The notes below the pieces were generated by a model. It saw nothing but the letters and a program-made list of their open reading frames with translations, made no database searches and was not told the DNA's origin. Shown here piece after piece: positions 15,196 to 16,521 of a stretch of 64,000 nt of DNA. Position numbers and translations under genes: made by a program. The stretch's first letter is position 1, and the number at the start of each line of letters is the position of its first letter. The stretch lies in assembly GCF_054482595.1 (NCBI RefSeq), contig NZ_CM137008.1, one strand, 5' to 3'.

Positions 15196-16521
15196 TTAAC
15201 GCATACAAAAGCGGTCGTAATGGAAGTTTTGGCTGGCAATCCCATTTTCATATAACCCTTTGCTGAGCGCTTTGGCAAAACTCTGTGGGCCGCAAAACCA
15301 GAAATGGGTGTCACCTTTATTTGCTATTTTATCAGTAAGATAGTGCGACTGTAGGCGCTCACCTTTATGCGCATCAAGCAGATGCAGTGTGACACTGGCC
15401 TGGGCACAAAGTGAGGTAAGTTTATCAACATACCATGCATCCTCGCTTCGGCTGACGCAATACCAGAGATCCACAGGAACACGGGACGCGCCATGCTGGT
15501 TCAGATACTCAAGCTGGGCGATAAAGGGGGTAATGCCGATGCCTCCAGCTATCCATACCTGGCGGGAGCAAGGGAGAGTAAAATCAAACTTTCCCCATGG
15601 CCCTTCAACGAGAGCGGACTGGCCGATTTTTATCGAGGATGCCAGAGTCGAGGTATAATCCCCTAAATTTTTGATGGCAAAGCGCAACGTGTTCTTCTCT
15701 ATTGCATATGAAGCGATAGTAAAAGGGTGAGACTCTTTACTGTGTGCGAACGTTAAGAATGCAAACTGACCCGGAGAATAGTCGATGGCATGTTCCAGCT
15801 CCAGTATGACTTCGGTAATTTGTCCCGGATGGTTAACAATACTTTTAATGGTGGCCTGATGCTTGTTTTTATTACCGTTTAATTTCAGCAGCGAAATGAA
15901 AGCCACAAAGACGCCTGGGATAGTAATTAAAATTAATAAATACGCAGCAGGAGTTTCCCACCAATATGATTTAAACAGTGCAGTAAATACATGAAAAGCA
16001 ATTGCCAGATAAAAAACGGGGAACAAACGGTGAACAAGATGAAATAAATGATAGGGAACTTTTTTGCTTAGAGACACGAAAACCATCGCTATCATAATAA
16101 ACATTGCACATTCACCCGCTAACAATCCCGCATGAAGCCAATTTTCTTGTACTGGCGTCAGGTTAATATCAACGATTTTACCAGGGTGAGTAAGCCAGCC
16201 AAAGGCGACGAATAACTGGGGTAATTTTTCATCCAGCCAGTGGGCGAAAGCAAAAGCGATGGCGCATATTCCTGCCCACTTATGTAATCGCCATGCTTTA
16301 TCCAGACCGCCCAGCATCTTGTTAAGCCATGATGAACGCAACGATAAGCACATCGTCAGCGTCATCAGACACCACGCAAGGGTTCCCGTAAAAAAGAGTG
16401 TGTTTTGTCGAATGAACCATATTAGCGCGATTGGCTTTTCACGAAAAATATCGCCGGATGACAAAAAAATAATACATGCGACAAAGCAAACCAACGTACC
16501 TGTAAGATTAGCTTTTTTCAT
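15196..16521 (-). CDS. NADPH-oxidase/ferric-reductase-family membrane flavocytochrome b (ferric reductase TM domain + FAD + NAD(P)H domains)
   Basis: 441 aa; bis-His motifs [15 protein letters not shown] and [14 protein letters not shown] in predicted TM helices, FAD motif HPFTIAS, NAD(P)H motif GGIGITPF, C-terminal FCGP. Confidence 0.75.

Follow-up and report, generated by a model that had tools for sequence, protein, structure and literature searches.

What does an enzyme built like an NADPH oxidase (NOX) do in Escherichia coli, and to what does it pass its electrons? The question is raised by a 64,000-nucleotide stretch of DNA (NCBI RefSeq assembly GCF_054482595.1, contig NZ_CM137008.1), referred to here as the window, in which an open reading frame (ORF) for a 441-amino-acid protein begins with ATG and occupies positions 15196–16521 of the minus strand. 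The strand had been left unstated in a preliminary description of the locus made from the letters of the sequence; a plus-strand reading of the same interval is ruled out, its frame being full of stop codons. RefSeq names the product either 'ferredoxin reductase family protein' or 'ferric reductase-like transmembrane domain-containing protein'. Taking the account below as a whole, we think it likely that the protein is a NOX-like flavocytochrome in which electrons run from NAD(P)H through flavin adenine dinucleotide (FAD) to heme, and that it belongs to an inducible module responding to a redox-active or electrophilic small molecule.

Domain architecture, fold and conservation

A Pfam search of the 441-residue product matched Ferric_reduct (PF01794) to residues 45–174 (E = 2.5e-14), FAD_binding_8 (PF08022) to residues 226–297 (E = 9e-8) and NAD_binding_1 (PF00175) to residues 324–420 (E = 3e-7), which bears out its placement in the NOX/ferric-reductase superfamily by the preliminary description. 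A motif scan located every motif listed there, at the spacing given. The transmembrane (TM) ferric-reductase domain, delimited as residues 1–215 by the AlphaFold model, hydropathy, charge and the PF01794 match, contains six helices and is encoded by positions 15877–16521 (minus strand, as are all features of this gene). It carries two bis-histidine segments, H80-x13-H94 in TM3 (residues 80–94; 16240–16284) and H164-x12-H177 in TM5 (residues 164–177; 15991–16032). These are followed by the FAD-binding motif HPFTI (residues 265–269, or 265–271 as HPFTIAS; HPFTI at 15715–15729), by the glycine-rich NAD(P)H motif GGIGITPF (residues 326–333; 15523–15546), which aligns residue by residue with GGIGITPF of SpNOX, and by the FWFCGP motif of the NAD-binding subdomain (residues 407–412; 15286–15303). 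This set is no product of coincidence, given the match to the ferric-reductase TM domain itself and the joint appearance of the FAD and NADPH motifs in just 1 of 20,000 shuffles of the protein.

Searches against proteins of known structure point the same way. With phmmer, three SpNOX entries headed the PDB matches (E ~6e-26), followed by FNR-type reductase domains, human NOX5 (1e-7) and the dehydrogenase domain of CsNOX5 (3.6e-6). The AlphaFold model, built from 36 homologues, was confident (pLDDT 90.1, pTM 0.87) and comprises six long helices (residues 2–21, 33–59, 73–106, 123–151, 157–184 and 191–211) and then a beta-barrel/Rossmann FNR fold. Compared with the PDB by Foldseek, it matched full-length SpNOX (8qt6/8qq7) best, at E = 2e-26 and TM-scores of 0.73–0.81, with NOX5, DUOX1 and NOX2 ranking below (E = 1e-16 to 6e-19). 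The TM domain searched alone against the PDB returned noise only (E > 0.4), and the outer-heme pocket is not comparable with those of NOX5 and NOX2 in that way.

All four heme histidines (H80, H94, H164 and H177) are invariant in an alignment of the 36 homologues, which are 34–89% identical, as are H265, P266, G326, G327, G329, P332, F333, C410, G411 and P412, the D-loop residues Y157 and F160, R62, W95 and the C-terminal F438 and R441. The histidine pairs sit inside the modelled helices 73–106 (H80/H94) and 157–184 (H164/H177). By homology with H69 and H83 of SpNOX, H80 presumably ligates the inner heme and H94 the outer heme, and H164 and H177 of TM5 are predicted to provide the second ligand of each. 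Hydropathy and charge distribution predict a positive-inside topology in which the N-terminus, the K/R-rich TM2–3 and TM4–5 loops and the dehydrogenase domain are cytoplasmic and the short loops periplasmic. In the cytoplasmic D-loop preceding TM5, HMMER alignment to SpNOX equates Y157 with Y122, which contacts the FAD adenine in SpNOX, and puts H161 at the position of R126; F438 is likely to be a flavin-stacking aromatic like SpNOX F397. The roles of the D-loop and of F397 are described in the eLife paper on SpNOX. The gene is under purifying selection, the ratio of nonsynonymous to synonymous substitution rates (dN/dS) being 0.15 between E. coli alleles and 0.20 against a copy at 89% identity. 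The complete reading frame, the confidence of the model (pLDDT 90, pTM 0.87) and these dN/dS values of 0.15–0.20 all agree with the earlier claim of an intact enzyme.

Hajjar 2017 set four filters for a prokaryotic NOX, and the protein passes every one of them. It joins 3–7, ideally six, TM helices (here six) to a C-terminal FNR-type domain in one chain; it has two H-x12-14-H motifs, each in its own TM helix and separated by 20 residues or more, with all four histidines present; HPFTI at residues 265–269 conforms to H[PSA]F[TS][LIMV]; and the NAD(P)H motif is represented by the invariant GIGITP at residues 327–332. The protein also matches the four-histidine 'bacterial long form' of Zhang 2013. 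YedZ-type proteins, in which the first TM3 histidine is replaced by a conserved arginine and which have nothing but a ferric-reductase domain (FRD) (Zhang 2013), are different: here H80 is present and a dehydrogenase domain is fused, which sets the protein outside the YedZ/MsrQ–STEAP group.

On the basis of its domains, motifs and modelled fold, we identify the ORF as a SpNOX-type bacterial NOX-like flavocytochrome b, a 'long-form' bacterial FRD protein in which the FRD is fused to an FNR-type dehydrogenase. Like SpNOX (PDB 8QQ7, 8QT6; Hajjar 2017, Petit-Hartlein 2024, Dubach 2024), it is a single chain of ~400–440 residues with six TM helices, H-x13-H in TM3, H-x12-H in TM5, HPF(T/S), GGIGITPF, a D-loop tyrosine (Y157, equivalent to Y122), short outer loops and no regulatory domains. 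The two proteins differ in that their overall identity is just ~22%, with the TM domain alone undetectable by pairwise search, in the histidine (H161) found in place of SpNOX R126, and in the Gram-negative host, so that the acceptor side of the E. coli protein is the periplasm.

Electron path and the oxygen site

From homology with SpNOX we infer both the cofactor content and the route of the electrons. The cytoplasmic FNR-fold domain would take hydride from NAD(P)H onto FAD, and single electrons would then pass between TM3 and TM5 to the inner heme b (H80/H164) and next to the outer heme b (H94/H177), to exit at the periplasmic face, where the short loops probably leave the outer heme exposed. 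If it behaves like SpNOX, the enzyme would form superoxide from O2, and would pass electrons to other acceptors besides, in vitro. As a prokaryotic NOX, it would be expected to bind two hemes b and FAD and to carry out an NAD(P)H-driven electron transfer that is sensitive to DPI and insensitive to cyanide.

Is O2 its natural acceptor? According to Zhang 2013, ROS (reactive oxygen species)-producing eukaryotic NOX enzymes are set apart from metalloreductases by NOX2 His-119, within a signature of His-101 and His-119 together with Thr-178/Gly-179. The first of these, a TM3 heme ligand, has its equivalent in H80, and A134-G135 of TM4 may lie at the place of Thr-178/Gly-179. The position of NOX2 His-119, which we take to be +4 from the distal TM3 histidine, is different. 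Four residues after the outer-heme ligand H94 lies E98, and the stretch HWLDEKLPQ that starts with H94 has no further histidine. Thus, where the preliminary description saw all catalytic signatures intact, the cofactor-binding motifs are indeed all there but the extra TM3 histidine of the eukaryotic ROS-producing enzymes is not, and O2 therefore need not be the natural acceptor. The eukaryotic NOX2/NOX5/DUOX core is otherwise similar in domain order, cofactor motifs and fold, whereas the long capping loops on the extracellular side, the EF-hands and the partner subunits of the eukaryotic enzymes have no counterpart here.

These comparisons bear on the idea that the protein is a dedicated superoxide generator, that is, a true NADPH oxidase making periplasmic or extracellular superoxide for signalling, gut competition or indirect metal reduction. 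SpNOX, the closest solved relative and alike in architecture and fold, consumes O2 and is called a bona fide NOX (Hajjar 2017). The SpNOX structure papers, however, report that the eukaryotic O2-reducing centre (His/Arg) is not conserved in SpNOX either, that mutations of its putative O2 sites do not reduce activity, and that O2 may not be the physiological acceptor. The outer heme of SpNOX is exposed and directly reduces cytochrome c, superoxide dismutase (SOD) and, poorly, ferric iron. With Glu-98 at the His-119 position as well, the sequence comparisons support a working NOX-like core well and do not support superoxide generation in vivo, a role that we judge unlikely.

A missing His-119 equivalent is also a property of metalloreductases, and the protein belongs to the ferric-reductase-domain superfamily, with several database records reading 'iron reductase'. 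It could accordingly be pictured as a ferric or cupric chelate reductase giving periplasmic Fe2+ or Cu+ for uptake, in the way of yeast Fre1 or plant FRO2. Against this, SpNOX is a very poor ferric reductase (kcat 0.05 per second), and the gene neighbourhood, to which we return below, contains no genes for iron or copper transport.

Relation to EcNOX and the wider family

The protein is in itself an ordinary member of a large and already described family, to which we could assign 5,396 proteins at E ≤ 1e-10 among the candidates scored and for which at least 562 genome loci were confirmed. The novelty implied by the preliminary description was in this respect overstated: bacterial FRD 'long forms' were catalogued by Zhang 2013, and Hajjar 2017 listed hundreds of prokaryotic NOX proteins and cloned and over-expressed one from E. 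coli, EcNOX (UniProt L2VL28, strain KTE10). The heme signal of EcNOX was weaker than those of SpNOX and PaNOX, and the protein was then dropped. EcNOX is probably the 441-residue type described here, because this is by far the commonest FRD–FNR fusion in E. coli, exact sequences of it being found on 757 and on at least 1000 contigs; the existence of a rare paralogue means that the identity is not proven. The passages of Hajjar 2017 that we consulted do not mention the genomic context of EcNOX, its distribution or the yqfE relic described below, and our literature searches found nothing on EcNOX after 2017 and nothing on the combination of yqfE, azoreductase, DUF1471 and ferric reductase.

The paralogue is a second NOX-like protein of E. 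coli, 435 residues long and 38% identical (locus L003, 6001–7308). Its gene is solitary, adjoining an IS66 element and an MFS transporter gene, and is without AzoR, DUF1471 or LysR partners. We also observed that the 90%-identity protein cluster holding the 441-residue protein contains hundreds of ArgP sequences from many genera. It appears to be a chimera, which may have arisen from a gene, fused or wrongly called, that covers the neighbouring ORFs of argP and the NOX-like protein; for the latter, the sizes of clusters are therefore unreliable.

The operon and its control region

The NOX-like gene is the last of three genes on the same strand, separated by gaps of 16 and 62 nucleotides and presumably co-transcribed. 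The first (16861–17490, minus) encodes a 209-residue AzoR-like protein, by its PDB matches an FMN (flavin mononucleotide)-dependent NADH azo/quinone reductase; the best match is Pseudomonas putida AzoR (4c0w, 5e-30), and P. aeruginosa AzoR1 and E. coli AzoR (1v4b, 9e-21) are also among them. The second (16584–16844, minus) encodes an 86-residue secreted protein of the DUF1471 (YdgH/BhsA/McbA) family, assigned from NCBIfam models (BhsA 6.6e-14, YhcN 1e-9, RclB 2.7e-6, all below the curated cut-offs) and from Pfam PF07338 in homologous loci; it has no cysteine and no cofactor motif. Divergent from the operon lies a gene for a LysR-type regulator of 298 residues (17591–18487, plus), recognised by the LysR family models PRK14997 (2.8e-50) and YafC (1e-44), again both below cut-off. 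The dN/dS values of the NOX gene's partners are 0.04–0.24, those of the DUF1471 gene being 0.04–0.08.

The 100-nucleotide intergenic region shared by the divergent genes contains a perfect dyad, ATTGTT-N10-AACAAT (17568–17589), which includes the T-N11-A pattern, so that the locus has the form of a LysR-regulated divergent operon. The dyad occurs once in the window and is not significant taken alone, since 26 of 100 shuffles had at least one match at one mismatch or fewer. Across five loci whose proteins are 51–95% identical, however, its arms are invariant and its spacer variable, a pattern to be expected of a LysR operator, the whole region having a mean column identity of 86%. We propose the dyad as a candidate binding site of the LysR regulator. 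In the 62-nucleotide spacer that separates the DUF1471 and NOX reading frames, a stem-loop (16544–16568, minus) has a minimum free energy of −16.8 kcal/mol and a z-score of −4.0, with none of 200 shuffles folding as well. The 95% and 89% alleles retain it, and a hairpin of different sequence occupies the same place in a Salmonella module whose NOX-like protein is 51% identical. Lacking a U-tract, the stem-loop is no canonical terminator, and it may govern the relative level at which the NOX gene is expressed. No obvious Shine-Dalgarno sequence accompanies the start codon of that gene, before which lie an A-rich tract and the mini-ORF ATG-AAA-TAA. Scans for consensus promoters and terminators gave nothing above shuffle expectation. 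A role in anti-phage defence was considered and dropped, as none of the four proteins had a PADLOC hit.

This neighbourhood speaks to the choice of acceptor. Co-expression with a quinone-detoxifying AzoR-like enzyme and a periplasmic protein of a stress family suits defence better than the deliberate production of ROS. For the chelate reductase, no iron or copper transport genes are found in or beside the module, control is by a LysR regulator, and a Fur box in the control region was rejected at a best match of 12/19; with the poor ferric activity of SpNOX, we consider this role distinctly improbable.

The secreted-protein gene immediately upstream of the NOX-like gene raises another possibility, namely a self-contained equivalent of MsrQ and Fre whose electrons would go to a partner protein in the periplasm, for instance a repair enzyme, either encoded elsewhere or identical with the DUF1471 protein. 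MsrQ (YedZ), the sole bacterial FRD protein with a known role, works in this manner: with Fre of E. coli it forms a system in which an FRD heme protein with an exposed outer heme is fed by an FNR-family flavin reductase and delivers electrons to the periplasm, and direct reduction of cytochrome c and SOD by the exposed heme of SpNOX would agree with such a relay. In the NOX-like protein, by contrast, the two parts are fused and all four heme histidines are kept, and there is no MsrP-like gene nearby. The module contains neither an MsrP-like molybdoenzyme nor any other cofactor-bearing periplasmic protein, and the DUF1471 protein, devoid of cysteine and cofactor motifs, is missing from a third version of the module. 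The chance that the protein serves such a relay seems to us very small.

In architecture alone, the locus recalls the reactive-chlorine operon rclR/rclABC, which likewise consists of a divergent regulator and genes for a cytoplasmic flavoprotein reductase (RclA), a DUF1471 protein of the periplasm (RclB) and a protein of the inner membrane (RclC). The two are not orthologous: an AzoR-like protein stands against RclA, an FRD–FNR fusion against RclC, and a LysR regulator against the AraC-type RclR.

Conservation of the module in other genomes

The same four genes recur elsewhere in the enterobacteria. A Salmonella contig (L001) has LysR, Flavodoxin_2, DUF1471 and NOX genes, arranged in this order too but elsewhere on the chromosome, their products being 71% (LysR), 71% (AzoR-like), 38% (DUF1471) and 51% (NOX) identical to those of the window, and a third contig has LysR, Flavodoxin_2 and NOX genes at 56, 61 and 52% identity, with DUF1471 absent. 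A Salmonella enterica genome, its host identified by exact SerA and ArgP matches, carries a copy of the whole module (L088, 3048–6338, against window 15196–18487) that is 89–95% identical and lies at the same rpiA–argP site. Between the window and this copy, the synonymous divergence (dS) of the module genes is 0.2–0.46, far below the 1.2–1.5 of the flanking argP and rpiA, which indicates that the module was exchanged between the genera Escherichia and Salmonella well after they split.

We found the arrangement only in these closest relatives, in which the NOX-like protein is at least 51% identical. None of 80 homologue loci at 33–43% identity (L004–L083) has AzoR or DUF1471 partners, and the notion that such neighbours are general for the family was rejected on this count. 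These loci, mostly from Betaproteobacteria and Gammaproteobacteria, have a divergent gene for an OmpR-type response regulator adjoining in 33 cases and, as other recurrent neighbours, genes for small secreted proteins that resemble PepSY and for small proteins that resemble cytochrome c (CxxCH). This distant part of the family would appear to work in a different context, possibly respiratory or metal-linked. Because the order of the genes and the intergenic region are conserved, dN/dS is low and the partners are absent from the distant homologues, we regard the LysR/AzoR-like/DUF1471/NOX module, from its comparative genomics, as a conserved and selected unit specific to an enterobacterial subclade.

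Distribution in E. coli and the yqfE scar

Among 5426 complete E. coli genomes, the NOX gene was matched in 247 (with 80% or more of its length covered in 228), in keeping with the accessory operon of the preliminary description, and 232 (~4%) have the four-gene block with at least 80% of its length present. The block sits between argP and rpiA, a location that the two E. coli allele groups share. In some carriers, the NOX gene is interrupted by IS1, truncated or frameshifted.

Most E. coli have lost the operon, and in K-12 a trace is left. There, 193 nucleotides from the 3' end of the LysR gene are joined to 58 nucleotides from the 3' end of the AzoR-like gene (window 18295–18487 and 16891–16948; K-12 locus L084, 1382–1632), and the NOX-like and DUF1471 genes are gone. 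The join is the pseudogene yqfE (b2915), whose last 64 residues are identical to the C-terminus of the LysR protein of the window. As read from this alignment, yqfE is the deletion scar of the module.

Such losses invite the view that the gene is a decaying remnant without function in this strain: it is absent from ~95% of E. coli, reduced to the yqfE scar in K-12, and IS1-interrupted, truncated or frameshifted in some genomes. Here, however, the frame is intact, all cofactor residues are kept and dN/dS is 0.15–0.20, and the whole module with its putative operator is conserved in other enterobacteria down to 51% identity. We give this view hardly any credence.

Some other features of the region were observed in passing. 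A methylmalonyl-CoA mutase operon (scpA, argK/meaB, scpB and scpC) is intact beside argP (window 8598–14049, minus); the Salmonella locus L088 lacks it and has yggE, argO and mscS after argP. Rfam models matched two Sib antitoxin RNAs (20903–21053 and 21295–21445), 6S RNA (ssrS, 22094–22277), which lies upstream of the gene for 5-formyl-THF cyclo-ligase, and the small RNA ES036 (4798–4840), all on the minus strand of the window; these RNAs are probably ordinary features of E. coli.

Discussion

The reading that we favour is that of a NOX-like flavocytochrome within a module induced in response to a small molecule that is redox-active or electrophilic, of the quinone or azo type, in which the NOX-like protein would supply reducing power to the periplasm while the AzoR-like protein acts in the cytoplasm. 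We infer an inducible redox response because the gene is inherited together with those for an AzoR-like enzyme and a DUF1471 stress-family protein and because a divergent LysR gene with a conserved putative operator accompanies them. The AzoR family consists of quinone and azo reductases, and the DUF1471 models nearest to the secreted protein are those of the stress proteins BhsA, YhcN and RclB.

Several points weigh against this reading. The regulated role in quinone or xenobiotic redox stress would be deduced solely from the gene neighbourhood and the names of families, one of which, DUF1471, comprises proteins without a defined biochemistry. The reach of the context argument is limited to the enterobacterial subclade, since the 80 distant homologues have other neighbours. 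One-electron reduction of quinones by a heme would give semiquinones, which is not obviously protective. The heme spectrum of EcNOX reported in Hajjar 2017 was weak. Finally, a gene lost from ~95% of E. coli and disrupted in some of its remaining carriers is dispensable.

A more specific form of the proposal, which we offer as speculation with little prior weight, is a two-compartment reductase system. A single inducer, such as a gut quinone, an azo dye or another redox-active xenobiotic, would call up both a two-electron reductase in the cytoplasm and an exporter that moves electrons across the membrane, the latter reducing a membrane-impermeant compound or an oxidised target in the envelope. 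If true, a physiological role would be known for the first time for one of the fused bacterial homologues of NOX, and it would be a role other than the production of ROS.

What appears to be new is the setting of the protein: a conserved LysR/AzoR-like/DUF1471 module with its putative operator, patchily distributed and linked to yqfE, a context that seems not to have been described before. Both of the 2024 papers on the structure of SpNOX call the physiological role of bacterial NOX homologues unresolved. For that problem, the subclade of E. coli and Salmonella offers a tractable handle, in the form of a small operon, served by a regulator of its own and a conserved putative operator, in genetically amenable hosts, with natural variation in presence and absence and with K-12 as a clean null background. 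To learn what induces the LysR regulator would lead straight to the acceptor.

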